Of a stretch of DNA of 64,000 bases, positions 18,143 through 39,141 are shown piece by piece. The translations under genes were made by a program, and so were the position numbers. How positions within the stretch are numbered: position 1 is the first letter of the stretch; each line of letters opens with the position of its first letter. The DNA comes from Candidatus Kerfeldbacteria bacterium (GTDB lineage Bacteria > Patescibacteriota > Patescibacteriia > UBA9570 > XYC2-FULL-38-9). The stretch is taken from assembly GCA_043813585.1 (NCBI GenBank), contig JBDRKW010000020.1, positions 1,185 through 65,184 of the forward strand, written 5' to 3'. The notes under the pieces are model-generated. The model saw only the letters and a program-made list of their open reading frames with translations. It did not search any database and was not told the DNA's origin.

Positions 18143-19300
18143 ATGATTGCACCGCATGGAAACAAACTGGTAGAACGCGTTCTGCCGGAAGACAAGATTG
18201 AAGAAGTTAAAAAAGAGGCCGCGTCGCTCGTCAGCATTACGCTCAATGAGGAGCAGATTAAAGATGTGAAAAATATCGCGCGCGGCGTTTTGAGCCCCCT
18301 GACCGGGTTTATGAACCGGGCGGATTTTGAGGGCGTTGTTGACAACATGAAGCTGGCAAGCGGCATTACCTGGTCGATCCCGTTCGTGCTGCATATTTCC
18401 GAAGAGGAGGCAGCCAAGATGAAGAGCGGCGACCGAATTGCGCTGGTGGGCGGAGACGGTGAGCTGGTTGCGCTGATGACGATCGGCGACATTTACGATT
18501 TTGACGTCGAGCACGTGGCAGAGAAGGTATTCGGCACGGCTGACAACGAGCACCCCGGCGTGGCGCGGTGGCGCAAAATCAGCGGACGCAAACTGGTGGG
18601 CGGCGACATTGACCTGGTCGACAACTCGAAAGAGCCGTTCTATGACTATAACCTGGATCCGGCTGAAACGCGGTACCTGTTCAAGCAATACGGGTGGAAC
18701 ACGGTTGCCGGGTTTCAGACGCGCAACACGCCGCATCGCGCGCACGAGTATTTGCAGCGGTGTGCGCTCGAGCTGGTGGACGGCCTCTTCATCAACCCGA
18801 TCATCGGCGAAAAAAAAGCCGGCGATTTCCAGGATGACCTCATTATCAAGACATACGACTACCTTATCAAGAACTTCTTTCCGAAAGAACGCGCCACCTT
18901 TTCGATTTTGCCGGCACGCATGAACTACGCCGGCCCGCGCGAGGCAATCCTGCACGCTATCATCCGCAAGAACTTCGGCTGTACGCATTTTGTCGTCGGC
19001 CGCGACCATGCAGGCGTCGGCAATTACTACGGTTCCTACGACGCGCAGGAAATTTTCGACCAGATCGAGGATATCGGGATTGAAATTATGAAGTTCGAAC
19101 ATTCGTTTTTATGCAAGAAATGCGACACGATGGCGACCACGAAAACGTGCGGCCATACGGACGCCGACCGCGTCTGCCCGTCGGGGTCGCTGATACGCGA
19201 ACTGCTCTCTGCCGGAAAGCCGGTTCCGGAAGATATCATGCGCAAGGAGATTGTTGACCTGCTTCTCGCGGAAAAAAATCTATTCGTTACGGAAGACTAG
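18143..19300 (+). CDS. sat: sulfate adenylyltransferase (ATP sulfurylase)
   Basis: The protein has the GFQTRNTPHRAHEYL (QTRN and HRAH) motifs of ATP sulfurylase. It is 385 aa. Confidence 0.9.
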   Translation: MIAPHGNKLVERVLPEDKIEEVKKEAASLVSITLNEEQIKDVKNIARGVLSPLTGFMNRADFEGVVDNMKLASGITWSIPFVLHISEEEAAKMKSGDRIALVGGDGELVALMTIGDIYDFDVEHVAEKVFGTADNEHPGVARWRKISGRKLVGGDIDLVDNSKEPFYDYNLDPAETRYLFKQYGWNTVAGFQTRNTPHRAHEYLQRCALELVDGLFINPIIGEKKAGDFQDDLIIKTYDYLIKNFFPKERATFSILPARMNYAGPREAILHAIIRKNFGCTHFVVGRDHAGVGNYYGSYDAQEIFDQIEDIGIEIMKFEHSFLCKKCDTMATTKTCGHTDADRVCPSGSLIRELLSAGKPVPEDIMRKEIVDLLLAEKNLFVTED

Positions 19301-19301
19301 G

Positions 19302-20321
19302 ATGCTTGAGATGGTGGATTTCAAAACGCACATCAAAGATGTCGCGCCGGCATCCGTGCTTATCATCCACCACTGGGACGCTGACGGTTTGAGCTGCACC
19401 GCGTTGCTGCTGAACTGGCTGGCGGAGCATGCGCCTGAAACAACCGTGCAGACCATGTACCCGCAGATCAACAACTATTTCCTGACCGAGAGCGAGTATG
19501 AATCCATCCGCGACGGCGGGTATGACGGTATCGTCTGTGCTGACCTGAATTTTTCCGTTGACGTCATCGAAGCGCTGGAGCAGATCGCATCGCCGGTATT
19601 TGTTTTTGACCATCATTCCCAGACAGAAGGCATAAACCGTCCCGGCATCCAGGACACATCGTATCCCGGCTGTTCCGCCCTGGTGCACGAATATTTATTC
19701 GGCGGAGAACCGTCGCTCCTTGGGGTTCTCGGAATGGTTGGCGATATGGAAGAGCGGCTGAAAGAACGCGCAGGCCACTACGAGGCGGTCGAGGCGGTCA
19801 TGGAGAAAGAATCGCTTTCGTTTAAGGATATTCACCACATGACGAGGCTCATTGATACGTCGTATATTATTAAGGACGAGGACGCCATCGCGCATGCGAT
19901 TGAGGTATTGCGAAAAGATCCGAAGGACGCGCTTACCGATGAACAGATGATCGCAAACGAGCAGCGCATTGCGGATGAGTTGGAGCGCGAAAGCGGCAAA
20001 GAGCTGGAGCGGGTGACGGACAAAGTGCTGTTCCTGCCGATTGAATCGGAGATGAGTCTGATTTCGGCAATCACGCGCACGCAGTCGCGCAAGCATCCGG
20101 AAGCGGTGATTGTCACCGAACAGCGGCGCGGAGATGATGCGAGTTTTTATGTGCGAAGGAAAGACGCGGAGATCGACCTGGGCTGCGTGGCAGAGCTGGC
20201 GAAAGGAAAAGGATATGTTGCCGGAGGAAAGCCGGAAGTGACAGGAATTGTTCTGCCGGCCGCTGATCTGGACGGGTTCCGCAGCGAAGTGTTTGAATTG
20301 TTAAAACAGGAGCTTGAGTAG
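19302..20321 (+). CDS. DHH-family phosphoesterase, candidate 3'-phosphoadenosine-5'-phosphate (pAp) phosphatase/nanoRNase (NrnA-like)
   Basis: The start was re-assigned to the ATG directly after the sat stop. The protein has DHH motifs (HHWDADG; FDHHSQ) and a DHHA1-like C-terminus. Its position between sat and cysC suggests pAp recycling. Confidence 0.6.
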   Translation: MLEMVDFKTHIKDVAPASVLIIHHWDADGLSCTALLLNWLAEHAPETTVQTMYPQINNYFLTESEYESIRDGGYDGIVCADLNFSVDVIEALEQIASPVFVFDHHSQTEGINRPGIQDTSYPGCSALVHEYLFGGEPSLLGVLGMVGDMEERLKERAGHYEAVEAVMEKESLSFKDIHHMTRLIDTSYIIKDEDAIAHAIEVLRKDPKDALTDEQMIANEQRIADELERESGKELERVTDKVLFLPIESEMSLISAITRTQSRKHPEAVIVTEQRRGDDASFYVRRKDAEIDLGCVAELAKGKGYVAGGKPEVTGIVLPAADLDGFRSEVFELLKQELE

Positions 20322-21714
20322 TATGAATAACAGGAAGGTCATCGTCATCGGACTGGATTGCGGAACGCCACAGCTTATTTTTGATCAGTATAAAAAAGAC
20401 CTGCCGAATATTTCGGCGATGATGGAGCAGGGAACGTGGGGCAGGCTCAAAAGCACCATACCGCCGATTACCATTCCGGCGTGGGCATGCATGACCACAT
20501 CAAAAACACCGGGCGACCTGGGAGTGTACGGGTTCCGTTCGCGGACGCCAGGCGCGCCGTATGACGCCATGGATATTGCGCACGCGGGCCTTATTAAAGA
20601 AAAACGCATCTGGGATTACCTGGGTGACGCCGGCAAGAAGGTCGGCATGCTCGGGGTGCCGCAGACCTATCCTGTGAAGCCGGTGAACGGCATGATGGTA
20701 TCGAGCTTCATGACACCGAGCACAAAGGAAGAGTTCGCCTACCCGGCAGAATTAAAACAGGAGATCCTCGACATGGTCGCGCCGGATGATTACATTTTTG
20801 ACTTTGCAAACCGGTCCGCAGAACCGCCGGAACAAGTGCTGGAAAAAATCTACACCATGACCGACCAGCGGCAGAAGATCTTCAAGCACTGGATACGGAA
20901 CAAGGAGTGGGACTTCCTCATGATGGTGGAGATGGGCGTGGACCGCATCCACCACTACCTGTGGCAGTACATGGATCCCACGCACAAGGATTATGAAGCC
21001 GGCAACCCTTTCGAAAACAAGATCCGCGAATACTACATGCACATCGACGCGTTCATCGGAGAGGTGCGCGAAATGGCGCCGGCCGACACCGTGATCTACG
21101 TCGTTTCCGACCACGGAGCAAAACGGATGGATGGCATGTTTGTCATCAACGAATGGCTGATTGAAAACGGCTACCTGGTGCTGAAAGAATTCCCGAAGGA
21201 ACCGACAAGCATCAACGCATGTGACGTGGACTGGAGCAAAACGAAGGCATGGGCCTGGGGCGGATTTTACGGGCGCCTGTTTTTGAACATTAAAGGACGC
21301 GAACAGCAGGGCATTGTTGATCCGGCAGACGCGGATGCGCTACTAGACGAACTGCGCTCAAAACTGATGGAAGTGAAGGGTCCAAACGGAGAAGAAATGA
21401 AGCATCTTCTCGTCAAACCGGGCGAATTGTATGCGGATGGGCGTGGCGATTCGCCAGACCTCATGATTTTCTGGGGCGACCTCTACTACAAACTGGCGGG
21501 CACGCTCGGGTACAACTCCTTGTATATCGAAAAGGACGACCGGGGCCTTGATTTCGGCGTCCACGACTGGTATGGTGTGTACTTGCGGCATGATCCGAAG
21601 GCCAAGGGATTGGGCGAAAAAGACGGCCTCAGCATCCTGGACATCACTCCAACCTGGCTGAACGACTTTGGCATGGATGTGCCCGGCGATATGAGAGGAA
21701 CAATTATTGAATAA
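20314..21714 (+). CDS. alkaline-phosphatase-superfamily protein, type I phosphodiesterase/nucleotide pyrophosphatase family
   Basis: The N-terminus [29 protein letters not shown] carries the metal-binding D and the T/S nucleophile typical of PF01663-type enzymes. Confidence 0.65.
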
Positions 21715-22336
21715 TATGAAACAGAAAGCGACAAACATTACATGGCATGAGGGCGACGTCACAAAGGAAGACCGGGAGAAGCTGCTCGGCCAAAAGGGCG
21801 TGGTGATATGGTTCACCGGCCTTTCAGGATCGGGCAAGTCAACGCTGGCAGTTGAGGTAGAGAAAAAATTGTTTACACAGGGCCGTGCGTGTTATCGTCT
21901 TGATGGCGACAACGTCCGCCACGGGATCAACAAAGACCTTGGTTTTTCAGATGAAGACCGCACGGAAAACATCCGCCGCATCGGCGAGGTGGCAAAACTG
22001 TTCGCCGACGCCGGCATCATTGTGATGACATCATTCATCTCTCCGTTCCGGGCTGACCGCGACATTGTTCGCGCGCTTTTGCCGGAAGGGGAATTTATTG
22101 AAGCGTACGTGCAATGTTCGCTTGAAGAATGCGAACGGCGCGACCCCAAAGGGCTCTATAAGAAAGCGCGTGCGGGCGAGATTCCCGATTTTACCGGCAT
22201 TGATTCGGCATATGAGGAACCGATGGACCCGGAGATTGTTGTGGCGACGGATAAAATGGGCATTGAAGAAGCGACCGATTTCCTATTAAAGGAGCTCGGA
22301 CGCCTAGGAGTACTCAATGGCGAAGTTCAACAATAG
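21707..22336 (+). CDS. cysC: adenylylsulfate (APS) kinase
   Basis: The protein has the P-loop [16 protein letters not shown], is 209 aa, and has a conserved APS-kinase core (DGDNVRHG..). Confidence 0.9.
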
Positions 22337-24053
22337 AGCAAAGGCGTTTGTTTTCAGCCTGATTATCTGCGCAGCGCTTGCGGTTGGTTTTGGCGTCATT
22401 TATTTCAACGACAGCGCCTGGGGTACCTGGGGCGATGACTCTGCCGGCTATATTTTCCTGGCCGGGCGCATGTGGGAAGGGGAGCCACTAGTGTACCTGG
22501 ATGAACTGGCAGCCAAAGGGCTGGAGTTTTTCGGCGACGAGAAGTTGGCGCGCTGGCTGACGCCGACGCACCACCAGTTTATTAACACCCGTGGCGTGAT
22601 CGCTTCAAAATACCCCGTTGGTGCACCGATGCTCCTGCTGGTCGGAGCGGCGCTTACAGGCAAGAGCGAAGGGTTTTATCTGGTAACGCCTGCACTGGCA
22701 GCCGCAAACCTTGTATTGTTCTATTTTCTGGCCGTTCTCGTCATACCCAGGCATCGGTACCGCCATTTTATCGGCTTGCTGTCTGCCGGAATGCTGGGAT
22801 TATCGGAACTGTATTACAACTACGCCATTGCGCAGCCGATGCGCGAGATCCCGTCCGTGACATTCCTACTGCTGATCGCCATCTTATTGCTGCGCGGCAT
22901 CCGGTTGCTGAAAAATACAGAACGTAAAAAGGCCGCAACGCCGTTTTATTTCATTTTCGCCGCCGGCTTGGCATTTGGCATGGCGTTCAATATCAGGGAG
23001 ACGAGCGCGCTCATCCTGCCCGGAGCCGCATTGTATGTCCTGTTGGCGCTGTGGCCGAAAAAAGAATCCACGCAGAAGTACATCAAGCAGCTGGCGCTGG
23101 TCGGGTTGTCATTTTTTATCGCGGCCGCGGTTGCCGTGATCCCCACAGCGCTGAATTCGTACAATATTTCACAGGACAAGGAGGTCTTCAAGGCCCGCGA
23201 CACAAGCAATGTGGTCGTACTGCCGAATATCGGCCATGTCGAATCATTAAGCGTGCAGAACCTGTTCGACAACCAGGGCAAGTTCCGCCCCGGCACCGGC
23301 TCGCTGCCGCACTATTGGGGCGTGATGCAGGATGTTGTTCCTGTCCCGTACTTCTTGGTGTTTGTCGCGCTTGGTATCTTTTTCTTGTGGAAGGAATCCA
23401 GGCCGAAAACGGCGCTCCTGGTCGGCTGGGCCGTCGGCATTCTTATCATCTTTTCCATTTGGGTGAACCCGTACTCGCGCTACATTATACCGATGTTCCC
23501 ACCGATGATATTCCTGGGCGTATACGGCTTGTTCGGTTTTTTCCAGGAGCTCGTGCCGAAATTGATTAAGAAACGATGGGCAATGACCATCCTTGCGCTG
23601 GGCGTGTCAGCCACCTTTTTGGTGGCCTACCAGCCGGTGTTTGCGGACGTGAAAGAAAATCTTAAAATCGATGTCCATCGGTATAAAGCGATATCTCACA
23701 AGGATTTGGAAACGTTAATCGATCTGGGCGACGAGCTGGTGCTTTCCGACCAGCCGGTGCTGATGTTTTCCGGCGTCTGGCAGTACGGAACGAGCGAAAC
23801 GCTGGAAGCTCATACCGGTTTAAAGACCGTCCGCTTTCCGCTGGAACAGCGGTTTGATTTTAACGAAGGCCGGGTAAACGAATTCTTCGTTTCAATGCTT
23901 TCGGACGGGTACACGCTCTATGTCTGGGTGGACGAAACATCCTCGCCAGAGCTGTTTACATGGCTTGAGATGTATGATACGAATCTCGTGGACACGCTGG
24001 ACTTCACCTTCCAGCCGCAGGTCCGCATTTACGAGGTCAGAGCTCAACGATAG
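22317..24053 (+). CDS. GT-C family membrane glycosyltransferase (ArnT/PMT-like)
   Basis: The protein has more than 10 TM helices and a DD motif in the first extracytoplasmic loop ([10 protein letters not shown]). It has a C-terminal soluble domain of about 130 aa. Confidence 0.6.
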
Positions 24054-24058
24054 CCGCT

Positions 24059-24739
24059 ATGCATGAAATAAAGAAAATTGCAGACGTCAAACCGTTCCAG
24101 AAACCGCAGGACTCTGTTTTTTCAATGCTATTCACAAGAAGACTTTCCCGCATCCTGACGTTCATCCTGGTCAAGGCGGATAAGGGCGTAACGCCCAACA
24201 AGGTTTCGACTTTTTCATTCCTGCTCGCGGTCATCGCGTGCGTGCTATTTGTATATGAAGATTATTGGGCGCGGTTTGCCGGCGTTATCCTACTGCAGCT
24301 CAGCTTCGCGTTTGATTGTTCGGACGGCGAGATCGCGCGCATCAAGAACATGAGTTCCAAATTCGGGGCGTGGCTGGATTCTGTCTACGACCGCATCAAA
24401 GAGGTGCTCATGTTTGCGTCCATGACGCTGTACTGGTTCCTGTACGAGGAGCGCGCGGTGTGGGTGCTCCTGGTCGGCTTTTTTGCAATCATCGGTTTGC
24501 TGCTTGTTTCTTACCTGCGCGAAGCGAAGAGAAGCTCCTGGCCGTCGAACCGCGTATCCGAACTGTTTATTGCAAAAGATATCTACGTCGGCACCGTGGA
24601 TGTCACGATCTACCTGGTCAGCTTTGCCGTGCTGTTTAACTTTCAAGTCTACATCCTGACGGTATTTTTACTTGTCAGCATACCGTTGCTGGCCAAGCAG
24701 TTCCTTTCTGCCTACCGGCTTTCGAAAAAAGAAATATAA
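24059..24739 (+). CDS. CDP-alcohol phosphatidyltransferase family protein
   Basis: The protein has the signature DCSDGEIAR..G.WLDSVYDRIKE (D-G-x2-A-R...D-x3-D) and multiple TM helices. Confidence 0.8.
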   Translation: MHEIKKIADVKPFQKPQDSVFSMLFTRRLSRILTFILVKADKGVTPNKVSTFSFLLAVIACVLFVYEDYWARFAGVILLQLSFAFDCSDGEIARIKNMSSKFGAWLDSVYDRIKEVLMFASMTLYWFLYEERAVWVLLVGFFAIIGLLLVSYLREAKRSSWPSNRVSELFIAKDIYVGTVDVTIYLVSFAVLFNFQVYILTVFLLVSIPLLAKQFLSAYRLSKKEI

Positions 24740-24740
24740 A

Positions 24741-24770
24741 ATGCCGCATGAAGCGGCATTTTTCTTATTT
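24741..24770. terminator. bidirectional rho-independent terminator between convergent genes
   Basis: A hairpin ATGCCGC-atgaa-GCGGCAT is flanked by an A-run on one side and TTTTTCTTATTT on the other. Confidence 0.7.
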
Positions 24771-24778
24771 GAGGCGCT

Positions 24779-26404
24779 CTAGAGTTTAATGCTGCCGAGC
24801 GCGCTTTTGATTGAGTCGCGCTCCGACTCCTTTTCTTCTTGTTTGCGCGAAACCGGGCCGATCTCTACCGGCTTCTTTTTGGCATCAGAATCTTCCGTAA
24901 ACAACGCCTTGGAAACGCGGCCGTCGCAGTCAGAAGGAACCGGCAGGCCGAACAGGTGAAGGATAATCGGCGTAATGTCCTGCATCTTCAAATTTTTGAC
25001 CTCGGCGTTGGTTTCAAAGTCCGGGCCGTAGGCCATGAACACGCCGTATTTGCCGTGCTTGTTGCTGACCTCTTCGCCAAACAGGGAGCCGGAATGGAAA
25101 TGGCCGGTGAGCCAGTACTGGTCCAGTTCAAAGAAGATATCCGGCGCCTGGTCAGGCGCATCGCCGCCGTACACCTCGTCGCGCGTCATGACCTTTTTCA
25201 CGACAGGAACGCCCTGCGGGTCCTTGAGGTTGCGGAGCTTATCGATAATTTCGGTTCGCAGCGGCAGGTATTCAGCGCTGGAGACCGTACCGTCCGTGTA
25301 GACCCAGTCCTTGTTGATATAGGCATTGGTGATATAGGCGCCTTTCGGAAAGCAAACGTTCGTTTCGTTGAAATCGATGCCCACGTTCACTTTGATATGG
25401 ACGGGGAAGTATTTCTTCACGATATGGTGGTAGCTCCATTTTGCCGCGCGCTCGGCAACGGGAATCTTCGACAGCGCGTTAATGGCTCCGGTCCCGATAT
25501 TCAGCTTCTTCTTTTTTGCGCGCAGCGTGTCTGTTTCTTTTGCGCGCCTCGTCACCGCGCCGCGGAAGTCGTCGCCCTGCTTGTTTGTCTTCAAATAGCC
25601 CTGCTGTTCAAGCCATCGGTTCAAGTAGAAGATCTTATCAAACGCCGCAAATCCGTGGTCGGAGAGTACAATCAGGTTCGCATCTTCGGGAAGGTTATCT
25701 ACAAACCATTTCAGGTGTTCGTCTATCTTTTCAAAGACGCGGCGGGGGGATTCAGCTTGCTGCTCTTCCAGCTCCTTGAACGCCATGTGTGAAATCCAGT
25801 CGGAATGCGAGAAGAGGTAGAAGAAAAAATCCCACGGCTTCTTTTTGAAGATCGCTTTCACTGCCTCGACCTGCTCTTCCATATGGTTCAATAGGTCTTC
25901 CGTATATTCATCCTGCCGCGACGTGATGCGTAGGCTCTCATCCGGCGTGAGCCGCCATTTCTTCAGCTCCGGGAACTCTTCAACGAGCGATGCGGGATAG
26001 ATGAACTGGTCGCCCTGCGTGAGCAAGCTGGTGATGGTCGGCGTATCCTTCAGTTTCGGCGGCCAGGTAGCAGGCAGGTTCAGCAGAATGGACTTGAGCC
26101 CGCGTTCATGCAACAGCTCATAGATCGTCTTATCCTTGATGTCTTTACTCGTCACGAACTTCATGTTGCCGAGCGAATCAGTCGGAAGCATAAAATCAAA
26201 TACGCCGTGCTTGCCCGGATGCTTGCCGGTGGCAAAGGTCGTCCACGCGGTCGCGGTCATGTTCGGGATGGTCGATTCCAAATCGCCGGACACGCCCTGC
26301 TCCATGAGCTTTTTCACGGTCGGCATGTATCCCTTGTCTGCAAGCGGCTTCAACAATTTCCATGTGGCGCCGTCAAGGCCAATGGCAACAATTTTCCTGT
26401 TCAT
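24779..26404 (-). CDS. alkaline-phosphatase-superfamily protein, type I phosphodiesterase/nucleotide pyrophosphatase family (paralog of 20314-21714)
   Basis: The N-terminus KIVAIGLDGATWKLL..TIPNMTATAWTTFATGK matches that family. The protein is 541 aa. Confidence 0.65.
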   Translation of the reverse strand: MNRKIVAIGLDGATWKLLKPLADKGYMPTVKKLMEQGVSGDLESTIPNMTATAWTTFATGKHPGKHGVFDFMLPTDSLGNMKFVTSKDIKDKTIYELLHERGLKSILLNLPATWPPKLKDTPTITSLLTQGDQFIYPASLVEEFPELKKWRLTPDESLRITSRQDEYTEDLLNHMEEQVEAVKAIFKKKPWDFFFYLFSHSDWISHMAFKELEEQQAESPRRVFEKIDEHLKWFVDNLPEDANLIVLSDHGFAAFDKIFYLNRWLEQQGYLKTNKQGDDFRGAVTRRAKETDTLRAKKKKLNIGTGAINALSKIPVAERAAKWSYHHIVKKYFPVHIKVNVGIDFNETNVCFPKGAYITNAYINKDWVYTDGTVSSAEYLPLRTEIIDKLRNLKDPQGVPVVKKVMTRDEVYGGDAPDQAPDIFFELDQYWLTGHFHSGSLFGEEVSNKHGKYGVFMAYGPDFETNAEVKNLKMQDITPIILHLFGLPVPSDCDGRVSKALFTEDSDAKKKPVEIGPVSRKQEEKESERDSIKSALGSIKL

Positions 26405-26435
26405 ACTATCAGTTAATGTCCGCTTAACCTCTCCC

Positions 26436-26519
26436 GTGCATTTCCATCGCGTGCTATTCTCGTCTTCGCTCGACGCACGCTACATGGAAATGCACTCGCG
26501 AGGATTCGCGGACAGTATT
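26436..26519. repeat. structured inverted-repeat element, copy 1 (12-bp outer stem, 6-bp inner stem, 20-nt loop, conserved 3' tail)
   Basis: The outer stem is GTGCATTTCCAT...ATGGAAATGCAC. The conserved core is cgcgtgctattctcgtcttcgctcgacgcacgctac, and the tail is tcgcgaggattcgcgga. The same core, with a different but perfectly complementary stem, occurs at about 53803-53885. Confidence 0.7.
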
Positions 26520-26524
26520 TTTTA

Positions 26525-30724: not shown

Positions 30725-31803
30725 TAATATTTGAGTAGTGAATCGAATACGGACCGGTATGATTCAGCGACGTCGTCCCATCGGAAATGGCTGACAGTGT
30801 ATTCCCGCGCGCGCTGTCCGAATGCGCGGCGCTCTTCCACATCTGCCGCCCATTCGCGCAGTACCGCAGCAAACTGTTCCGGCTGTTCCGCATCTACGAG
30901 CCTGCCGTTTTGTCCGTCGTAAATCGCGTCAGTGATCCCTTCAAGCCGGGAGGCCACAACAGGAAGGCCGGCTGCTGCCGCTTCCACTGCAACAAAGCCG
31001 AAACCCTCGACATCGTCCTTCTCGTCAATATTCGGCATCACGAATGCGTCAGCTCCGGAGTATAAGTTTGTGAGTAATTCGTTATCAATGCCGCCCAGCA
31101 GCGTAACTGACTGTTGCAGTTTTGTTTCCTCTATTGCCCGTTCGATCGATTCGCGCTCCGGACCGTCAGATGCAATGACAAACAGTGGAGAGAGATTATC
31201 AAGCAGCGGCATTACCGACCGGACAAACCATTCAATGCCCTTCCGCCGCACCAGGCGCCCGACAGAAAGAATAATAAACTGGTTGTCGCAGCCGTCATCC
31301 GTGCTCATCATCCTGCAGAGCGCGCTGCGCGCTTCATTCCGGTCGCGCATCTGCGGTGGGGTGACGCCATGGGGAATGCACTTAATTTTTTCTTCGGGAA
31401 CGCCTCGCTCCATTAACAGCGAACGCGTGTTTTCGCTTACGCAGACAAACCGGTCCACTGAAGGCAGGGAAGCATTGATCATCCATGTGTACAACGGCCC
31501 CATTTTTTTATAGGTGAGTTCAAGTCCGTGAACGGTGGCAACCACCGGTCTTGGGGTGAACACCTTTAGTATTCGTGCAACCGGTGCAAGGACCAGGTCG
31601 CCCAAGTGGTACGCGTCCGCTTTTTTACGGAGCCCGATCGCCTTAATCGCTAGCAGGGGGATAACCCATATGATGTCTGCCTGGCGCTTCCCGCGTGCAA
31701 TAACAGTTTTTTCATCGCTAAAATGGCGTATCAGCTCGTAGCTAAACGTCTCCATGCCGCCCTTTTGAGGCGGGTATTTGCGGGTGAGAAAAACGATATG
31801 CAT
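30724..31803 (-). CDS. glycosyltransferase, family 4 (GT-B fold)
   Basis: The protein has an N-terminal GT4 domain (IVFLTRKYPPQKGGMETF) and a C-terminal motif EGFGFVAVEAAAAGLPVVAS. Confidence 0.85.
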   Translation of the reverse strand: MHIVFLTRKYPPQKGGMETFSYELIRHFSDEKTVIARGKRQADIIWVIPLLAIKAIGLRKKADAYHLGDLVLAPVARILKVFTPRPVVATVHGLELTYKKMGPLYTWMINASLPSVDRFVCVSENTRSLLMERGVPEEKIKCIPHGVTPPQMRDRNEARSALCRMMSTDDGCDNQFIILSVGRLVRRKGIEWFVRSVMPLLDNLSPLFVIASDGPERESIERAIEETKLQQSVTLLGGIDNELLTNLYSGADAFVMPNIDEKDDVEGFGFVAVEAAAAGLPVVASRLEGITDAIYDGQNGRLVDAEQPEQFAAVLREWAADVEERRAFGQRAREYTVSHFRWDDVAESYRSVFDSLLKY

Positions 31804-31849: not shown

Positions 31850-31921
31850 GTGTAGGGGGATCATGCAAGTGAAGTGGCTGCTGTCTTGAGAAACCGGAGA
31901 TCATCTGCTACACTATGTCTG

Positions 31922-33988
31922 ATGAAATTCAAGGAACTATCCTACAACATCAGTATAGCGGCAGCCGTTGTCAGTGCCATTGCCCTGGCTTGGTTGGCGC
32001 TTTTTCCGACCCCGTTAGACCTGTTTTCATGGACCGTACCCGCCTGGCTGCTTGTGGCATTCCTCGCCGCACTTTGTTCCGGAAGCATAGGGCTGGTGGC
32101 GCGGCAATCGGACCGCCGTTTTGGTTTTCTCCTCGCGTTGCATATTGTCCCTGCGCTCAGCATCAGCCAGGCCAGGGGGATGCTCAGCCCTGGAACCGAC
32201 GGCCAGGAGCTCGTGCTGAGCGTGCTGTGGGCTGTTGCGGTGGTGGAGCTGGCGTACGAAGCGCGCCCGCAGTTGTTTGAAGGCCTTACTTGGAAAGCGC
32301 TGACCGCGTTTGCCGTATCGCTAACAGTCATCTGGAGTGTGTTTGTCCATCTTGCGAGGTTCAATGCCGACTCCATACTCATTAACGGATTCCTGGTGCT
32401 TGCCTGGGCTGCCGTTGTCCGCTGGATGCCCGATAGGGGCGAAGGAAAAGATAATAAAAAACAATTCATCCATTTGGTCTGGACTGCGTGCATCGGGATC
32501 ATCGTCTTATGGGGCGCATGGCTGCGCATTGCGGCGGTGGATACGTTCGCATTCCAGAATGACGAGTACTACCACGTTGAAGCGGCTGCCGGCTACCTTG
32601 AAACAGGGGAATACAAATTATGGAATTTCGTTTTCAATGAGCCGGAGGAGGAATACGATCGCGCATGGGTCTACACATGGCAGGTTGCGCAAAGCTTTAA
32701 ATTATTCGGCTTTTCAGAAGTAAGCGGACGCCTGCCGACGCTGTTATGGGGGCTGTTTTTTCTGGCGCTGGTGCCGCTGTTGGCCTATTCATGGACACGA
32801 TCACGAGGTGTGGCATTCTTGGCAACCGCAATCGCGGCATTTGATAACGGATTCGTATGGGCATGTACCTACTCGCGCATGTATACCATGCTCCAGGTGC
32901 TCATACTGGCGGGCGTGTGGTGTTTCTGGATGGCGCTGCGCAATGTCAAGCGCAAGCGGCCCTGGACGCGATGGCTCTGGCTTGCCGCAGCCGTTCTACT
33001 TGTTCTGGCAGCTGCGTACATTCATGCAAGCGGCCTCCTCATCTTCGGGGGCATGGCCGTAGCGATATGGCTGTTATATTTCTTCAACAGAACAAACACA
33101 TGGTACAGATTGTTGTCCATTCTTTTTATCGCGGGCTCGTTTGCGGCAATTCTTTACAGCAAACTCCAGTCGCAGATTTGGCTGAATCTCATCACTGTAC
33201 GCAAAGAAGCGGCCGTGCAGTATCTCGCGTATCCGTTCCAGGACCTGGTCATCACCATACTCGGCATGATCCTGTTTATCGTGGCATTCATTGCGTACAA
33301 AAAAGAGAAGCTCCCGACATGGCTTATCATCGCCGGTTCCACAACAATCCCAGCAGTGATCTATTTCACCTACTTTGCCGGAAGGTATGGCGCCAGAAAA
33401 TACAGCCTCTTTTTCCTTGTCTTCATCTACATCGCAATCGCATGGGTATGGAATCGGGTACTGCGTCAGTGGACCGCACATTCATGGAAACGATTGGTTA
33501 TTGGTACGTTCATTACAGTATGGGTATTTGTTCCGATTTCCATCCCGGGCGTGGAGGGATCGTTCGTGACGCGGACGGCGCGTGCCGACCTGACCTATAG
33601 AGATGTAGGCCTGCATGATTACAAAATCGCCTATGCAGCTGTTCAGGAAGAGGCGAAGACAGATGACGCCATCGTCATTCTTGCGCCGCGGTCCTATTAC
33701 CTCTACCGGACGGATGTTGATTATTTCATCATGCCGGTGAACAACGCCATGACAGTGGAGATGCTCGAAGAGGTGATGACGCAGAAAGCACGCGGCTGGG
33801 TTATTTGGCCGCGGTTCAAGGAGTTTCACCTCTCCAGGAAATTCACCAATTATGTCAAAGACAACCTGCACCCCTTTGAAGGCACAAAAGGAACGCAGGT
33901 TCGCGTCTATTACTGGGACCGCGTCCAGGACGCGCTCGATCAGATTGATCAGATTAAAGAGCTGGAATCGGAACGCACTGAAGAATAG
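31922..33988 (+). CDS. GT-C family membrane glycosyltransferase (ArnT/PMT/GT39-like)
   Basis: The start was tentatively set at the ATG at 31922; the track has a GTG at 31874. The protein has more than 12 TM helices and a DE motif in the first periplasmic loop (AFQNDEYYHVEAAAGY). A large C-terminal soluble domain follows. Confidence 0.65.
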   Translation: MKFKELSYNISIAAAVVSAIALAWLALFPTPLDLFSWTVPAWLLVAFLAALCSGSIGLVARQSDRRFGFLLALHIVPALSISQARGMLSPGTDGQELVLSVLWAVAVVELAYEARPQLFEGLTWKALTAFAVSLTVIWSVFVHLARFNADSILINGFLVLAWAAVVRWMPDRGEGKDNKKQFIHLVWTACIGIIVLWGAWLRIAAVDTFAFQNDEYYHVEAAAGYLETGEYKLWNFVFNEPEEEYDRAWVYTWQVAQSFKLFGFSEVSGRLPTLLWGLFFLALVPLLAYSWTRSRGVAFLATAIAAFDNGFVWACTYSRMYTMLQVLILAGVWCFWMALRNVKRKRPWTRWLWLAAAVLLVLAAAYIHASGLLIFGGMAVAIWLLYFFNRTNTWYRLLSILFIAGSFAAILYSKLQSQIWLNLITVRKEAAVQYLAYPFQDLVITILGMILFIVAFIAYKKEKLPTWLIIAGSTTIPAVIYFTYFAGRYGARKYSLFFLVFIYIAIAWVWNRVLRQWTAHSWKRLVIGTFITVWVFVPISIPGVEGSFVTRTARADLTYRDVGLHDYKIAYAAVQEEAKTDDAIVILAPRSYYLYRTDVDYFIMPVNNAMTVEMLEEVMTQKARGWVIWPRFKEFHLSRKFTNYVKDNLHPFEGTKGTQVRVYYWDRVQDALDQIDQIKELESERTEE

Positions 33989-35103
33989 AGTGCAAGATAT
34001 TGGTCAGCTACAGCCTTCCATGACAATGAGCGCGCTGCTGCAAGGCCTTTTTTTGAAAGCTCGGTCCGCAGATCAGGATTTTCAATAAGGCGCACGAGCG
34101 CAGATGCAATTACTGAGGACGATGCGGTTTCAACGATAATTCCGCAGTCCCCGACTAATTCTCGTGCTCCGGTATTTGTCGTTATGACGGGCACGCCGCT
34201 TGCCATTGCTTCCAGCACAACATTGCCCAGCGCTTCAGTGAGTGACGGCAGAACAATTACGTCTGACTGGCGGTAGAGCGCCGGCAGCTGATCATAGGCG
34301 ACGTTGCCATGGAATATCACCGATCCTTCAATGCCGAGGGTTTGGACTTGTATCTGTAACTTTTCTTTATCCGGACCGTCACCTGCAATATGCAGCCGAC
34401 TGTTGGGATGCTGCGCTGCAACAGAAGCAAATGCATCCAGTAAGTAGCGTAAACCCTTGCGTTCAACCAAACGGCCGACGTAGAGAATGTTGAAATCGTT
34501 CTTATTCAAGATTGGCCGTTGTGTCATTTGGAACGTGGCACCATCTACGCCGTTTCTGATAATTGAAATCTTCTGTTGCGGAGCGGTCTTGACGGCAAGG
34601 GTGCACAAGCTCTCACTGACCGCAGTAACAGCTTCTGCAGACCGCCAAACCCGGCGGCTCAACCGACGGAAGAGCAGCCGGTCGGGCAACCGAAAGCGAT
34701 CGTTATAGAACGGCACATCGCTTCCCCGGAGAGAAACGATATACGGCAAACCGAGCTTCATTGCGATATACCCGCACGGTATGCCAAAAAAGGCATGCAC
34801 AAGGTCATACTGCCGTTCACGCACTAGCGCTGAACAGTAACGATGCGCCTTGTATGAATAGGCAAGCAGATCCCGGTTGCTTTGGTAATGGAGGCTGCCT
34901 CGTTTTCCAATATCGAGATAGTGTATCGTAATGAATCTGCCCAGATTTTCTGTTTTGAAGTGACCAGTAGAGGAGGTAACGAGATCAACGGTAAGTTCCG
35001 GGTGTGATGCGTATTCCTTCAGTAAAAAATGGTTCGCGGTCGCCGCGCCGCCCCCGAGTGGAGGGTATTCGTAATTAAGAAAGAGGAGAGACAGCGGGCG
35101 CAT
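33949..35103 (-). CDS. glycosyltransferase, family 4 (GT-B fold)
   Basis: The N-terminus LNYEYPPLGGGAATANHF is paralogous to the product of 37145-38278. The C-terminus reads PSLTEALGNVVLEAMASGVPVITTN. Confidence 0.8.
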   Translation of the reverse strand: MRPLSLLFLNYEYPPLGGGAATANHFLLKEYASHPELTVDLVTSSTGHFKTENLGRFITIHYLDIGKRGSLHYQSNRDLLAYSYKAHRYCSALVRERQYDLVHAFFGIPCGYIAMKLGLPYIVSLRGSDVPFYNDRFRLPDRLLFRRLSRRVWRSAEAVTAVSESLCTLAVKTAPQQKISIIRNGVDGATFQMTQRPILNKNDFNILYVGRLVERKGLRYLLDAFASVAAQHPNSRLHIAGDGPDKEKLQIQVQTLGIEGSVIFHGNVAYDQLPALYRQSDVIVLPSLTEALGNVVLEAMASGVPVITTNTGARELVGDCGIIVETASSSVIASALVRLIENPDLRTELSKKGLAAARSLSWKAVADQYLALYSSVRSDSSSLI

Positions 35104-35112
35104 ACACAAAGT

Positions 35113-36165
35113 TCACGTTGATTTCAAATATGCACGCACCTCGACACTCGGATCGCGGGTAAACCGTTTCATGCTGTCCTTCATGTCGCTTTTTTTACGC
35201 GTTGAGTAGATCACGCGGCGTTTGCGGAGCATTGTTGGCGCAAGCAGGAACGCTGCCCCGTAGCCTCGCATTGCCGTGAGAATCATCATCGGCTTGCTCA
35301 GTTTTCTGCTGTGTGCGGCGTTGGCGCCGGCGCTTTTCTTTCTATTTCCTGCATACTGCATATACGCAAAAAAACGGCGATAGAGCAGGGCGATTTTTTT
35401 CAGAAGAACCGTCCAAGGGAAGAGCTTTATAGCGATTAGTAGCTGGTTGCGCGTGATATAATAGGTTTTAAACGCAGACATGGCGCCGGAGGATTGCGAA
35501 TGGAAGTGGTACACGACCGATTTCGGCTCATACATCACGTTCCAGCCGTACAGATGCGCGCGCATTCCCCATTCCGCGTCTTCCCCGTATGAAAAAAGCG
35601 TTTCGTCAAACGCGCCGCACTCTTCAATAACTTCGCGGCGGACGATAAAGGAAGCGCCGCACGGAGCGAATACTTCATTTGCCTCATTCATTTCATCCGG
35701 CTTCATACCGGTTCCGCGGTGGAATCCGCCCAGGTCCGGAGCGGAGAACATGCCGGTGGACTGGATAACCGGAGGGTTGTCAAAGAGGATTTTCGACGTG
35801 ACCATTCCGGTTTTCTCATTCGCTTCAAGGCGCTGCACCAGGTGATGCAGCCAGTTCGGCCTGATCTCCGTATCAATATTGAGGCAGGCGATATATCGTA
35901 TGTGCGGGTTCCTTAATGCCGACTCAAACCCGATATTATTCCCGCGTGCAAACCCGGTATTCTCCTTCAGCGGAATGAGCTGTACATCAGGATATTTCGA
36001 CCGGATGAATTCCAACGATCCGTCAGTCGAGCCGTTATCAACAATCACAACAGTGAACGGAGTGCCGGCGTTTTTATACAGTGCATCAATGCAGGATTGG
36101 AGGAATTTCCTGCCGTTCCAGTTCACTAGAATGACCGCTGTTTCGGCCGCTTGTTGCGTTTTCAT
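35113..36165 (-). CDS. glycosyltransferase, family 2 (WbbL/rhamnosyltransferase-like)
   Basis: The start was re-assigned to MKTQQ, giving an ATGA overlap with the upstream sulfotransferase. The protein has VILVNWNGRKFL..VVIVDNGSTDGS (GT2) and a DxD-type GED/DAE region. Confidence 0.75.
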   Translation of the reverse strand: MKTQQAAETAVILVNWNGRKFLQSCIDALYKNAGTPFTVVIVDNGSTDGSLEFIRSKYPDVQLIPLKENTGFARGNNIGFESALRNPHIRYIACLNIDTEIRPNWLHHLVQRLEANEKTGMVTSKILFDNPPVIQSTGMFSAPDLGGFHRGTGMKPDEMNEANEVFAPCGASFIVRREVIEECGAFDETLFSYGEDAEWGMRAHLYGWNVMYEPKSVVYHFHSQSSGAMSAFKTYYITRNQLLIAIKLFPWTVLLKKIALLYRRFFAYMQYAGNRKKSAGANAAHSRKLSKPMMILTAMRGYGAAFLLAPTMLRKRRVIYSTRKKSDMKDSMKRFTRDPSVEVRAYLKST

Positions 36166-37037
36166 GACAATGTAGATTTTCTGAGCCAGAACCACTGGAT
36201 CGGATAGATGAGGATGGCTGCGATTGCACGTTTCCATAACGGTTGCTCTGTTTTCCACGTTTCGTCGCAGCGGATGCCGGAAAATGCTTTCCGCCGCTCC
36301 GGCAGCGCCAGCCGGTTGCCGCCGATATTATGGTAGTCATCCATCGTTCTCACGCGCTCGGCATAATCAGCGGGTATTTCAATATTCAGGAAGCGCGCAA
36401 TCGATTCCAGATGGGCCTTCGGTTCCCGGCAAAACTTCTCATAATGAATAAACAGCGTGGGCACGCCGGACTTGCGCACGTAACGCATGATGAGAAAATT
36501 CATCAGCAACCACTTGCCCAGTGAAAGGAAGTAGCTCTTGCGCGGCCCCTGCTTGCCCGAATTGAACGAATTGGCCACCGCGCGCGCGTCGCGGATGACG
36601 AAAATGTTCGTGACCTTCAGGGACGGGTCTGAATGGAGCTCCGCCAGCCGCCCAACCTCTTTGGAAGAATCCAGGAAATATTTGACGCCGGAAGTGCATT
36701 TGCCGGACAGTTCGGAAAGCAGCGCGGCGTTGTCGGATGTATGCGCAAAGCGAAGGTTGCGGTACAGGGGATTGAGCGCGTAATGCAAAATCTTCAGGTA
36801 GTCGCGGACATTCATCCTGTTCTCTATATGGAATTGTTTCTGGTTTGCCGCCGCATCAGACCAGAACGGACATACAGTCATCGCTCTGCCGCAGCTGCAG
36901 GGCACGCCTTCCTCGGCCATGGCATTGAACTTATACATTTCGCCGACGCTGCAGACGCTTGTGCTGCTTGAGATCACCAAATCGAGCAGGGTGGACCCGC
37001 TCCTGCCGATGCCTGAAATATAGATTATTTCGTTCAT
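36162..37037 (-). CDS. PAPS-dependent sulfotransferase
   Basis: The protein has a 5'-phosphosulfate-binding P-loop ISGIGRSGSTLL and a 3'-phosphate-binding region IRDARAVANS. It is 291 aa. Confidence 0.7.
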   Translation of the reverse strand: MNEIIYISGIGRSGSTLLDLVISSSTSVCSVGEMYKFNAMAEEGVPCSCGRAMTVCPFWSDAAANQKQFHIENRMNVRDYLKILHYALNPLYRNLRFAHTSDNAALLSELSGKCTSGVKYFLDSSKEVGRLAELHSDPSLKVTNIFVIRDARAVANSFNSGKQGPRKSYFLSLGKWLLMNFLIMRYVRKSGVPTLFIHYEKFCREPKAHLESIARFLNIEIPADYAERVRTMDDYHNIGGNRLALPERRKAFSGIRCDETWKTEQPLWKRAIAAILIYPIQWFWLRKSTLS

Positions 37038-37090: not shown

Positions 37091-37094
37091 GGAA

Positions 37095-37123: not shown

Positions 37124-37144
37124 GAAGTGCGAACAACCGCAATC

Positions 37145-38278
37145 ATGAAGATATTAATAGTCAATTACGAATTCCCGCCGCTTGGCGGCGGCGGCGGAGT
37201 GGCGGCCAAGGATTTGGCGCGCGGTTTTATGAAAAACGGCCATAGCGTGGATTACCTGACCACGCGGTTTAAGGATGCACGCCGGACAGAAACCGTTGAC
37301 GGCATCCGCGTGCATCGCGTTCGTGTGCTTGGACGCCGGCACCAGTCCCACGCCTCGTTGCCTTCGCTCCTTTCCTTTCCGTTTTGCGCTCTATGGAAAG
37401 GCATCCGGCTGTGCCGCACGCACCGGTACGATCTGATAAATACCCATTTTGTCATCCCGTCCGGTCCGCTCGGCTGGTTGTTATCCGTACTGTTCCGAAT
37501 CCCGAATATCCTGACCGTTCACGGGGGAGATATTTATGATCCCACAAAATCGCTGTCGCCGCACCGCCATTGGGGGTTGCGCGCGGTCGTCCGGTTCCTC
37601 CTGAACCGCGCTGATGTCGTCACTGCGCAGTCCTCGAATACGAAGGAAAATACGCTGGAGTATTACAGGCCGCGGAAGCAGATACAGGTGATTCCGCTGG
37701 CGTACGAAACAATACCGTATGCACCGGTGCCGCGCACAGAGCTGGAGCTTGACCCTAAAGCGTTCGTCCTTGCCGGCATGGGCCGCATGGTCAAGAGAAA
37801 ACGCTTTGCGGATATCGTGAGGGCGCTGCAATTGCTGCCGGAACAGGTGCGCGCCGTAATTATCGGCAAGGGCCCGGAATCGGAAGCGATCAAATCGCTG
37901 GCCCGGGAGATGGACGTGGCCGACCGGCTGCTGCTGCCCGGGTTTGTCAGCCAGGAGCGGAAGATGCAGCTGCTTAATGCATCGGACGCCTTTGTCCTCA
38001 GTTCCGAACACGAAGGGTTTGGCATCGTATTGCAGGAAGCGATGCAGGCCGGGTTGCCGATTATCGCAACGAACAACGGCGGCCAGACCGATCTGATTAC
38101 ACAGTCAAAGAACGGCTACCTCTACAAACCTGGCGACGTACAGGCGCTCGTCGAATCGATCCGTGCGCTGATGGCGAACGCGGATCTTCGGCGGGAGATG
38201 GCAGAGGAAAACAAACAACGTGTCAGGGAGTTTTCACCCGAAAGCATTGCGCAGCGGTATCTGGAACTGCTCGGTTAG
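37145..38278 (+). CDS. glycosyltransferase, family 4 (GT-B fold)
   Basis: The start was re-assigned to MKILIV, downstream of the predicted promoter. The N-terminus is NYEFPPLGGGGGVAAKDLA, and the C-terminus reads SSEHEGFGIVLQEAMQAGLPIIATNNGG. Confidence 0.8.
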   Translation: MKILIVNYEFPPLGGGGGVAAKDLARGFMKNGHSVDYLTTRFKDARRTETVDGIRVHRVRVLGRRHQSHASLPSLLSFPFCALWKGIRLCRTHRYDLINTHFVIPSGPLGWLLSVLFRIPNILTVHGGDIYDPTKSLSPHRHWGLRAVVRFLLNRADVVTAQSSNTKENTLEYYRPRKQIQVIPLAYETIPYAPVPRTELELDPKAFVLAGMGRMVKRKRFADIVRALQLLPEQVRAVIIGKGPESEAIKSLAREMDVADRLLLPGFVSQERKMQLLNASDAFVLSSEHEGFGIVLQEAMQAGLPIIATNNGGQTDLITQSKNGYLYKPGDVQALVESIRALMANADLRREMAEENKQRVREFSPESIAQRYLELLG

Positions 38279-39141
38279 AACGACCAGCTGTCGATTGTCC
38301 GGCCAAGCAGGTGTTCCAGCTGCCGTTTGTCGGCCGTAAAGCGGGAGACAAGCTCATTCCTGGTCGAAGATGCGACCTCATAGTGGGATGTGTCAGGAGC
38401 CAGGTACAGCCGTTCCAACAGCTGCTTTGCCGTCGTGTGCGACAGCTTGCGGACCAGCCATAAGCCGGCGGCAGAACGTTTGATCATATTTTTTGCGTTG
38501 CGGGCGGTTTCGCGCTTCACGGCCTGTTTGGCATTCACTTTCCTGTGCAGCGCTTCAGGAGGGAAAGACGAATCAACACCCAGGAACGAATAGACGCCCC
38601 CGATAACGCGTTCCGGGTCCTCTTTCAGATCTTCAAACAGCACCACCTTGATTTGTTCAGCCGGGAACAGGTCATAATATCGTTTCAGCTGCTCATAATA
38701 AAAACCTCGCTCGATGAATTCCGGGAATTTCTTCGAAGCCTCTTCAAATGTGTCTGGGACCGGGATGAGCTTGCGCGTATGGGCGTATTGCGACAAGGCG
38801 CGGTAGACCGGGTCGCGCAGGATCGCGATGATTTTCACCGACGGGCTGTATTCATGGATCAATTTGGCCGATTCGGGATCATAGATATAATGCGTGCTGA
38901 ATTCGCCCAGTAACTGGCCCGGCTTTGCGCCTGCAAACTGTTGTTTGTATTCATCAAAACCGCTATACTGCCGTTGACGCGTTGCCGGACAGTGCTTGAT
39001 GCGGTTCCAATAATCCAGCTCCTTCTTCTTCGGAACATAAATCTGCGGGTGTTCCATCAGGCATTCCGCAAGCCAGGTCGTGCCGGCTTTTTGCGCGCCG
39101 ATGCCGATGAAGTCAATTGTGAACGGGCGTTGTGCGCTCAT
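38275..39141 (-). CDS. PAPS-dependent sulfotransferase (Sulfotransfer_1/3-like)
   Basis: The protein has the 5'-PSB motif FIGIGAQKAGTTWL (PKxGTTW-type) and the 3'-PB motif ILRDPVYRALSQY (RDPxxRxxS). Confidence 0.8.
   Translation of the reverse strand: MSAQRPFTIDFIGIGAQKAGTTWLAECLMEHPQIYVPKKKELDYWNRIKHCPATRQRQYSGFDEYKQQFAGAKPGQLLGEFSTHYIYDPESAKLIHEYSPSVKIIAILRDPVYRALSQYAHTRKLIPVPDTFEEASKKFPEFIERGFYYEQLKRYYDLFPAEQIKVVLFEDLKEDPERVIGGVYSFLGVDSSFPPEALHRKVNAKQAVKRETARNAKNMIKRSAAGLWLVRKLSHTTAKQLLERLYLAPDTSHYEVASSTRNELVSRFTADKRQLEHLLGRTIDSWSF

Follow-up and report, generated by a model that had tools for sequence, protein, structure and literature searches.

A complete sulfate-activation cassette in a glycan locus of Candidatus Kerfeldbacteria and its likely role in surface-glycan sulfation

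What use does a Candidatus Kerfeldbacteria bacterium make of the activated sulfate donor 3'-phosphoadenosine-5'-phosphosulfate (PAPS), when the genes to make and recycle it lie inside an operon of glycosyltransferase (GT) genes? We addressed this question for a stretch of 64,000 nt of contig JBDRKW010000020.1 (hereafter the window), in which open reading frames (ORFs) of at least 180 aa were scanned for Pfam and NCBIfam domains. The genes concerned are sat, a DHH-family phosphoesterase gene, a gene for an alkaline-phosphatase (AP) superfamily protein referred to here as AP1, and cysC, together with two sulfotransferase genes, ST1 and ST2, further along the same locus (Table 1). It is likely that the window holds a surface-glycan locus with its own cytoplasmic PAPS cycle, in which ST1 and ST2 sulfate the glycan. 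A first-pass annotation had named sat, the DHH gene, cysC, ST1 and ST2, and every one of these was recovered at its predicted position; its inventory was right for the genes that it listed and overlooked AP1 and a minus-strand gene of 70 codons.

The sat product scored 503.5 bits against the NCBIfam model NF003166 (cut-off 387) and 291.8 and 171.8 bits against Pfam, and carries the motifs QTRNTPHRAH (HxxH) and GRDHAG that mark the homo-oligomeric type of ATP sulfurylase. CysC scored 238 bits against APS_kinase and 306 bits against NF003013 (cut-off 163), and has the P-loop GLSGSGKST and the LDGDNVR motif of adenosine-5'-phosphosulfate (APS) kinases. Neighbouring genes from sat through DHH and AP1 to cysC are separated by 1 nt or overlap, and the whole region 13739-24739 is co-directional with gaps of 1–12 nt or overlaps, the one exception being 110 nt (15744/15855), a packing that is compatible with a single operon and that bears out the earlier description of sat, DHH and cysC as co-directional among GT genes. 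Directly upstream of sat, GT2a has two predicted transmembrane (TM) helices at its C-terminus and its closest solved relatives are the dolichyl-phosphate mannose synthase (DPMS) 5MLZ and ArnC (9BHC, nearly full length), and downstream of cysC lies GT-C1, for which there was no sequence match in the Protein Data Bank (PDB).

The DHH protein had been annotated as an NrnA-like phosphatase of 3'-phosphoadenosine-5'-phosphate (PAP), a proposal of which the predicted activity is supported and the family is not. Its sole PDB sequence match, over the full length (E 1.9e-15), was 8A8K, which is MtPAPP, the non-canonical PAP phosphatase of Methanothermococcus thermolithotrophicus, a Mn-dependent and PAP-specific enzyme of a family reported from 168 archaea (PMC10322725). 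The Mn ligands of MtPAPP are His6, Asp8, Asp10, Asp57, His76/His77 (of the DHH motif) and Asp127 (PMC10322725), and all of these positions are kept in the window protein (HHWDADG, ADLN, DHH and VGD aligned); the residues H24, D26, D28, D81, D103-H104-H105 and D148 are invariant across 37 DHH homologues. A C-terminal AGGKxEVxGI stretch is also common to the DHH protein and MtPAPP, with GGKxEVxG invariant in the 37 homologues. In Foldseek searches with an AlphaFold (AF2) model (mean predicted local distance difference test, pLDDT, 95.7), 8A8K ranked first (E 8.5e-24, TM-score 0.72-0.77), a RecJ-like structure second (E 4.5e-16), and NrnA and Rv2837c matched at E 1e-11 to 1e-13 with TM-scores of 0.4-0.5, so that the two-domain DHH/DHHA1 fold is nearer to 8A8K than to RecJ or NrnA. 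Neither of the models proposed earlier fits. NrnA was rejected as there was no Pfam DHHA1 match, the protein has a GGK motif and not GGGH, and no NrnA chain appeared among PDB sequences even at E <= 10. CysQ belongs to an unrelated family with the Inositol_P (FIG) fold; the Inositol_P domain was not found among the scanned window ORFs. The 8A8K match, the invariant Mn ligands and the fold together support the DHH protein as a candidate PAP phosphatase of the MtPAPP family, and it has no TM segment or signal sequence.

The surroundings of this family were examined in 80 metagenome loci collected with a DHH profile, 27 of which were evaluable by flank; the DHH protein alone, used as query against genome contigs, had given no match in a first scan. 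In 25 of the 27, sat (or CysD/N) and an APS kinase gene adjoin DHH. A gene of ~185 aa with a Sulfotransfer_1 domain was present in 15, AP1 in 6 and neither in 4, and no evaluable locus held both the sulfotransferase and AP1. The small sulfotransferase gene is placed between DHH and cysC or just 3' of cysC, and in Thermoplasmata metagenome-assembled genomes the order is small ORF, sat, DHH, sulfotransferase, cysC. Neighbours of DHH were sulfotransferase, nucleotidyltransferase and sugar-nucleotide enzyme genes. Because 15 of 27 evaluable loci hold a sulfotransferase, the MtPAPP family is mostly embedded in sulfation cassettes and not in reduction cassettes. This extends a phosphatase family regarded as archaeal to bacteria, and bears on a problem posed by PMC10322725, namely the role of such genes where sulfate assimilation is impossible.

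Two candidate consumers of PAPS lie within the same locus. ST1 and ST2 had been predicted from their PAPS-binding motifs, and coordinates and motifs were both confirmed: GIGRSGST and IRDARAVANS are present in ST1, KAGTTW and RDPVYRALS in ST2, and the two proteins passed the cut-offs of Sulfotransfer_3 and Sulfotransfer_1, respectively. Both motifs are also kept in alignments of each protein. The best PDB match of ST2 was 3RNL (1e-29), followed by heparan-sulfate 3-O- and N-sulfotransferases; KAGTTW, RDPVYRALS and GEFSTHY align to the corresponding K, R/S and EKT of 3-OST-1, so that three elements line up with carbohydrate sulfotransferases: the Lys that binds PAPS, the position of the Glu base, and Arg/Ser in the 3'-phosphate-binding (3'-PB) motif. 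ST1 alone had no significant PDB sequence match and required a family profile. Its family counts 6,952 representatives, and in a profile of 46 sequences GxSGST and RDxR....S were near-invariant (G11, S13, G14, S15, T16, R149, D150 and S157 conserved). This profile matched the CurM sulfotransferase (4GBM) at 1.9e-12 across both motifs and, more weakly, the OLS and tyrosylprotein sulfotransferases. Neither ST1 nor ST2 has TM segments or a signal sequence, which argues that they act at the cytoplasmic side, with access to PAPS. The GT4, GT2 and Wzx genes described as flanking both were confirmed by Pfam.

Two further observations concern these genes. Residues 47-59 of ST1 (~36861-36899, minus strand) contain a CxCx6C followed by W that is near-invariant in the family (C47, C49, C56, W59) and absent from the solved relatives, and this Cys cluster may be an insertion that binds metal. 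For ST2 on the minus strand and Wzx2 on the plus strand, the annotated starts overlap divergently by 10 nt (39132-39141), and ST2 shares a further 4 nt with the end of GT4c. This leaves no intergenic room for a promoter, so that the true starts may lie further in.

The association of these sulfotransferases with glycan genes and with PAPS supply was found to recur in related loci, each of which was given an L-number as its label. In L088 a homologue of ST2 (55% identity) directly adjoins one of ST1 (47%), followed by GT-C genes, homologues of GT4a and Wzx1 (Table 1), an NTP transferase (74%) and an Fe-ADH gene, with the Wzx1 and GT4a homologues only a few kb from the sulfotransferase pair; the island is thus of one type with that of the window. 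In L006/L007 (33% GC) homologues occur in the order Wzx2-like, ST2 (47%), GT2b (43%), ST1 (34%) and GT4b-like (36%), so that in L006 the GT2b and GT4b homologues flank those of ST1 and ST2, and homologues of Wzx2 (33% identical) and GT-C3 (30%) are present as well. This module stands directly beside CysQ, CysN/APS kinase and CysD, a PAPS supply that is non-homologous to that of the window. In L171 a fused sat-APS kinase stands beside a cluster of GT and methyltransferase genes that holds three ST2-like genes in tandem. Thus ST2-family genes in glycan clusters are joined to PAPS supplies of three unrelated architectures, and the full module of ST1, ST2, GT and Wzx genes to two of them, sat with cysC and DHH in the window and CysDN-C with CysQ in L006/L007. 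This recurrent pairing of sulfotransferase genes with unrelated PAPS supplies is the strongest argument that local PAPS serves ST1, ST2 and the glycan.

At least 7 Patescibacteria contigs keep the cassette itself, with glycan genes of the same kind around it (L001-L003 and L009-L012; DHH identity 31-52%), which shows the co-occurrence of sat, DHH and cysC with GT genes in relatives for which the first-pass annotation had called. The order kept on the plus strand is UGDH, GT2, a small ORF in some cases, sat, DHH, AP1, cysC, GT-C and CDP-alcohol transferase, and that kept on the convergent minus strand is AP2, small ORF, CDP-alcohol transferase, G1PDH-like, NTP transferase and Wzx. UGDH is upstream of the cassette in L001-L003, L009, L011 and L012, the SDR pair has an equivalent position in L002 and L003, and GT-C1 with CDP-alcohol phosphatidyltransferase 1 also lies directly 3' of cysC in relatives from the Candidate Phyla Radiation (CPR). 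GC content in the window is flat (0.50-0.56) and a tRNA scan of the window found none. An origin as a horizontally acquired island was rejected, as flat GC and synteny kept in relatives make a resident glycan locus more likely.

Of all genes in the cassette AP1 is conserved best, with 65-73% identity to its closest Patescibacteria orthologues and 54-60% to more distant ones. It is an NPP-like protein of COG3379 (463-466 aa) encoded between DHH and cysC; its homologues number over 6,000 at E <= 0.001, and its best matches beyond Patescibacteria (45-50% identity) come from many bacterial and archaeal phyla. The AP core, a Thr nucleophile and two metal sites place it in the NPP/AP superfamily: D15, Thr53 (the nucleophile, in PPITxPAW), D210, H214, D266 and H267 are invariant and H417 is found in at least 90% of sequences. 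There was no PDB sequence match, and an AF2 model (pLDDT 92) matched ENPPs, Xanthomonas NPP and PhnA with TM-scores of ~0.6 at 12-14% identity (E ~1e-18 to 1e-15). AP1 resembles ENPP1/3/5/6, Xanthomonas NPP and PhnA in fold, in the Thr nucleophile of a TxP motif and in the six metal ligands, and differs from them in being cytoplasmic (soluble, with no TM helix or signal sequence) and linked or fused to ATP sulfurylase.

This linkage extends well beyond Patescibacteria. Among 80 genomic AP1 loci, 58 were evaluable with at least 1.5 kb on either side, and 45 of these had sat and/or an APS kinase gene within 3 kb on the same strand (both in 38), AP1 usually lying between the two in many phyla. 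In 12 loci from Chloroflexota/Anaerolineae, sat and AP1 form one ORF, which we accept as a fusion because the linker is clean and ~15 aa long. Exceptions were seen in Planctomycetota and Verrucomicrobiota, where AP1 is found in exopolysaccharide (EPS) loci beside GDP-mannose dehydratase, GHMP kinase and GT4 genes. In L074 one long ORF spans both GDP-mannose dehydratase and AP1; it was set aside as a probable high-GC read-through, the stretch between the domains being arginine/proline-rich junk. Two contigs binned as 'uncultured Gammaproteobacteria' (L008 and L010; AP1 identity 73% and 56%) carry the CPR-type order DHH, AP1, cysC, GT-C and are probably mis-binned Patescibacteria, and a 'Thermoplasmatota' AP1 (P0198) with 71% identity may be mis-binned too. 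No literature was found on an association of COG3379/AP1 with sat and APS kinase.

From these families, their catalytic and PAPS-binding residues and the predicted location of the proteins, a pathway can be proposed, for which we infer the acceptor, the order of steps and the arrival of sulfate on the glycan. UGDH and the SDR enzymes would make a nucleotide sugar, which GT2a would load onto polyprenyl phosphate, while sat would make APS and cysC would turn it into PAPS. GT4b, GT2b and GT4c would build a lipid-linked oligosaccharide of undecaprenyl type at the cytoplasmic face, and the soluble ST1 and ST2 would sulfate its sugars with PAPS. The DHH enzyme would hydrolyse to AMP and Pi the by-product PAP, which would otherwise inhibit the sulfotransferases. 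Wzx2 would flip the sulfated product, with Wzx flippases as its exporters, and the GT-C enzymes would add further sugars outside from polyprenyl-phosphate donors. AP1 would be an obligatory fourth member of the cassette, with one of three roles considered below.

Several points weigh against this pathway. ST1 and ST2 are separated from cysC by 14-17 kb and belong to transcription units of different orientation, and in three relatives with called genes no canonical sulfotransferase was found within 10 kb of the cassette, so that the link between cassette and ST1/ST2 comes from the synteny in L088, L006 and L171 and not from adjacency. No sulfate transporter was visible in the window, and a transporter, cysH/sir or further consumers of PAPS may lie outside its 64 kb, which are part of a 351-kb contig. 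The possibility that sat, DHH, AP1 and cysC serve assimilatory sulfate reduction, with their placement among GT genes incidental, draws on the fact that the analysis covered part of the genome and on the only characterised member of the DHH family, MtPAPP, which works in assimilation (PMC10322725). We regard it as very unlikely. As the first-pass annotation had claimed, PAPS/APS reductase and sulfite reductase are absent from the window, where no scanned ORF had a PAPS_reduct or NIR_SIR domain (Pfam), and among the sulfur genes queried beside DHH in the 80 metagenome loci only activation genes and sulfotransferases, and no reductive gene, were found. Likewise, no PAPS or sulfite reductase was seen among the 12 recurrent neighbour clusters of the 80 AP1 loci (representatives inspected by eye), nor was one a recurrent neighbour in the ~170 related loci as a whole; the neighbours are instead sulfotransferases, nucleotidyltransferases and sugar-nucleotide enzymes, and the cassette sits in a tightly packed glycan operon kept across Patescibacteria. 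CPR bacteria also usually lack amino-acid biosynthesis. Alternatively, PAPS may be used for sulfation with a lipid, a secreted peptide tyrosine (as with RaxST) or a small metabolite as the acceptor of ST1, ST2 or both. The nearest solved relatives of ST1 do act on acyl-ACP (CurM, with OLS also matched) or on tyrosine (the tyrosylprotein sulfotransferase TPST) and not on sugars, and 3RNL, the best solved relative of ST2, has no assigned substrate. However, in each of three independent clusters the homologues of ST1 and ST2 are accompanied by the same GT2, GT4, Wzx and GT-C genes, and the next relatives of ST2 are heparan-sulfate sulfotransferases with the catalytic Glu position aligned, which makes a non-glycan acceptor improbable and leaves the glycan as the preferred one.

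The role of AP1 can be interpreted in three ways, of which the most likely is hydrolysis of pyrophosphate (PPi), pulling the unfavourable sat reaction. This would explain the presence of AP1 near sugar nucleotidyltransferases and avoid redundancy with DHH; in some eukaryotes sat is fused to a pyrophosphatase. It is also conceivable that AP1 is a second enzyme hydrolysing PAP, or one that hydrolyses nucleotides. The third interpretation is that AP1 is itself the PAPS consumer of the core cassette, a non-canonical AP-fold sulfo- or nucleotidyltransferase that non-orthologously replaces the small sulfotransferase of sat-PAPP-cysC cassettes, with ST1 and ST2 as additional and variable consumers, and this reading is compatible with glycan sulfation by ST1 and ST2. 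It is suggested by the mutual exclusivity of AP1 (6 loci) and sulfotransferase (15 loci) in the same cassette, and agrees with the flanking by sat and APS kinase across phyla, the 12 sat fusions, the occurrence in EPS loci near GDP-mannose dehydratase and GT4 where sat and cysC are missing, the three CPR relatives with no nearby canonical sulfotransferase, and the intact catalytic Thr and bimetal site. On the other hand, we know of no PAPS-dependent transferase in the AP superfamily, the fold match is to hydrolases, the mutual exclusivity may mirror lineage and not function, and hydrolysis of PPi (pulling sat and sugar nucleotidyltransferases) or of PAP and nucleotides is simpler and fits most of the data. 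We hold a role as PAPS consumer to be possible but doubtful, and the same tentative standing applies to its acceptor, which might be a sugar or polyprenyl-phosphate sugar supplied by UGDH, the SDR enzymes and GT2a. If AP1 were such a transferase, sulfate activation and sulfation would have a core enzyme that has so far gone unrecognised, and sat-AP1-cysC would be a widespread self-contained module of Chloroflexota, Aminicenantes, Patescibacteria, Bathyarchaeia, Asgard archaea and others. In any case, a large uncharacterised family that is tied genomically to ATP sulfurylase and APS kinase presents a concrete target for biochemistry.

Glycan sulfation with a local PAPS supply has several known counterparts. 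Rhizobial Nod-factor sulfation combines PAPS synthesis by nodP/nodQ with the NodH sulfotransferase, and mycobacterial sulfolipids depend on the CysDNC/CysQ PAPS system with Stf0 (both cited in PMC8205485). The window is similar to both in that dedicated PAPS genes are placed with a sulfotransferase for a glycoconjugate and PAPS is the cytoplasmic donor. Those systems rely on CysD/CysN(-C), which is heterodimeric and of GTPase type, and on a phosphatase of the CysQ type, whereas the window has a homo-oligomeric-type sat, a separate cysC, an MtPAPP-type DHH protein, an extra AP enzyme and a CPR host. Lipid-carrier glycosylation of the Arn type involves Ugd, ArnA, ArnC and ArnT, and GtrA/B/V systems are comparable. 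In the window, as in these, UGDH and SDR enzymes come first, and after them a GT2 of ArnC/DPMS-like type, which carries TM helices at its C-terminus, and a GT-C with many TM helices. Unlike the Arn system, the window has no aminotransferase or formyltransferase and carries the sulfate-activation genes inserted between GT2 and GT-C.

The synechan cluster xss of Synechocystis 6803 is of the Wzx/Wzy type with several GTs and two sulfotransferases of different subfamilies, and sulfation is proposed to occur at the lipid-linked repeat unit (PMC8205485). The window similarly pairs Wzx and GTs with two types of sulfotransferase and, unlike xss, embeds the full PAPS donor cycle; the xss paper makes no mention of PAPS or PAPS-supply genes and states that among bacteria sulfated EPS are known only from cyanobacteria (PMC8205485). 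The ATPS-APSK-PAPP set of M. thermolithotrophicus has homologous sat and APS kinase, the same DHH family and identical Mn ligands. It feeds PAPS reductase and Fsr in assimilation (PMC10322725), in contrast to the bacterial window, in which sulfotransferases are present and a reductase was not found, an arrangement that matches the hypothetical 'route 1c' of PMC10322725. No literature was found on sulfotransferases or sat/cysC in Patescibacteria/CPR, nor anything relevant on Kerfeldbacteria. What is new here is the combination of a CPR host, an MtPAPP-type phosphatase and an obligatory AP-fold partner, and the principle is known; PAPS supply joined to sulfotransferases appears to be a common theme in metagenomes, which tempers surprise at the principle and not at AP1. 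The ultrasmall bacteria of the CPR live as episymbionts and attach to the host through their cell surface. In this lineage, the presence of four genes to make and recycle PAPS within a conserved locus of over 25 kb would predict, from sequence, anionic sulfated surface glycans.

Table 1. Genes of the glycan locus, in order along the window.
Feature	Coordinates	Strand	Evidence or remark
Two short-chain dehydrogenase/reductase (SDR) nucleotide-sugar epimerase/dehydratase genes	13739-14800, 14797-15744	+	Pfam Epimerase, GDP_Man_Dehyd; operon start
UGDH, UDP-glucose/GDP-mannose 6-dehydrogenase (product nucleotide-uronic acid)	15855-17162	+	all three UDPG_MGDP_dh domains
GT2a, polyprenyl-phosphate glycosyltransferase (DPMS/ArnC-like)	17132-18130	+	Pfam Glycos_transf_2
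sat, ATP sulfurylase (sulfate + ATP -> APS + PPi)	18143-19300	+	Pfam ATP-sulfurylase and PUA_2
DHH/DHHA1 phosphoesterase	ORF 19251-20321, likely start ATG 19302	+	Pfam DHH, 32 bits
AP1, alkaline-phosphatase superfamily	20314-21714, likely start ATG 20323	+	Pfam Phosphodiest, 157 bits
cysC, APS kinase (APS + ATP -> PAPS + ADP)	ORF 21707-22336, likely start ATG 21716	+	
GT-C1 (PMT_2-like)	22317-24053	+	10 predicted TM helices
CDP-alcohol phosphatidyltransferase 1	24059-24739	+	last gene of plus-strand operon
AP2, AP1 paralogue	24779-26404	-	
70-aa protein	26528-26737	-	ribbon-helix-helix look by eye
CDP-alcohol phosphatidyltransferase 2	26727-27491	-	
G1P-dehydrogenase-like Fe-ADH_2	27475-28551	-	NF002022 283 bits, under cut-off 413
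NTP transferase	28551-29282	-	
Wzx1 flippase	29279-30724	-	59% to L088 protein
GT4a	30724-31803	-	56% to L088 protein
GT-C2 (PMT-like)	31874-33988	+	12 predicted TM helices
GT4b	33949-35109	-	co-oriented with and downstream of ST1
GT2b	35113-36258	-	co-oriented with and downstream of ST1
ST1, PAPS-dependent sulfotransferase (Sulfotransfer_3 type)	36162-37037	-	35.5 bits against cut-off 27
GT4c	37127-38278	+	
ST2, PAPS-dependent sulfotransferase (Sulfotransfer_1 type, like carbohydrate O-sulfotransferases)	38275-39141	-	82 bits against 22
Wzx2 flippase	39132-40628	+	within conserved sulfotransferase module
GT-C3	40609-43017	-	within conserved sulfotransferase module

The order of the convergent minus-strand operon (24779-29282) is repeated in L002 and L003, and the set at 24059-29282 suggests that a CDP-activated glycerol-phosphate or similar head group is added to a lipid or glycan. 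AP2 is a soluble protein with weak PDB matches to ENPP6 and PhnA. The 70-aa protein encoded before AP2 owes its ribbon-helix-helix look to the N-terminus and has a conserved C-terminus (...EEAVKKRLEDLGYLD). Its homologues are found 5' of sat in most DHH cassettes, and also in 18 of the 80 loci collected for AP1; in L087 the C-terminal motif is fused onto the end of a 571-aa AP2-like protein.

Three and perhaps four genes for large multi-TM GT-C proteins of the PMT_2-like type are present (GT-C1 to GT-C3 and possibly 43065-45089), along with two ArnC/DPMS-like GT2 genes whose products have C-terminal TM helices (GT2a and 45086-46075), which together imply that sugars carried on polyprenyl phosphate are used heavily outside the membrane. 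No methyltransferase was found among the scanned window ORFs. The region 48810-54836, which lies downstream of the glycan genes, contains genes for a sugar-1-phosphate nucleotidyltransferase, a pfkB kinase and S-adenosylhomocysteine hydrolase, as well as the dTDP-rhamnose genes (RmlC-like, RmlB-like and RmlD).

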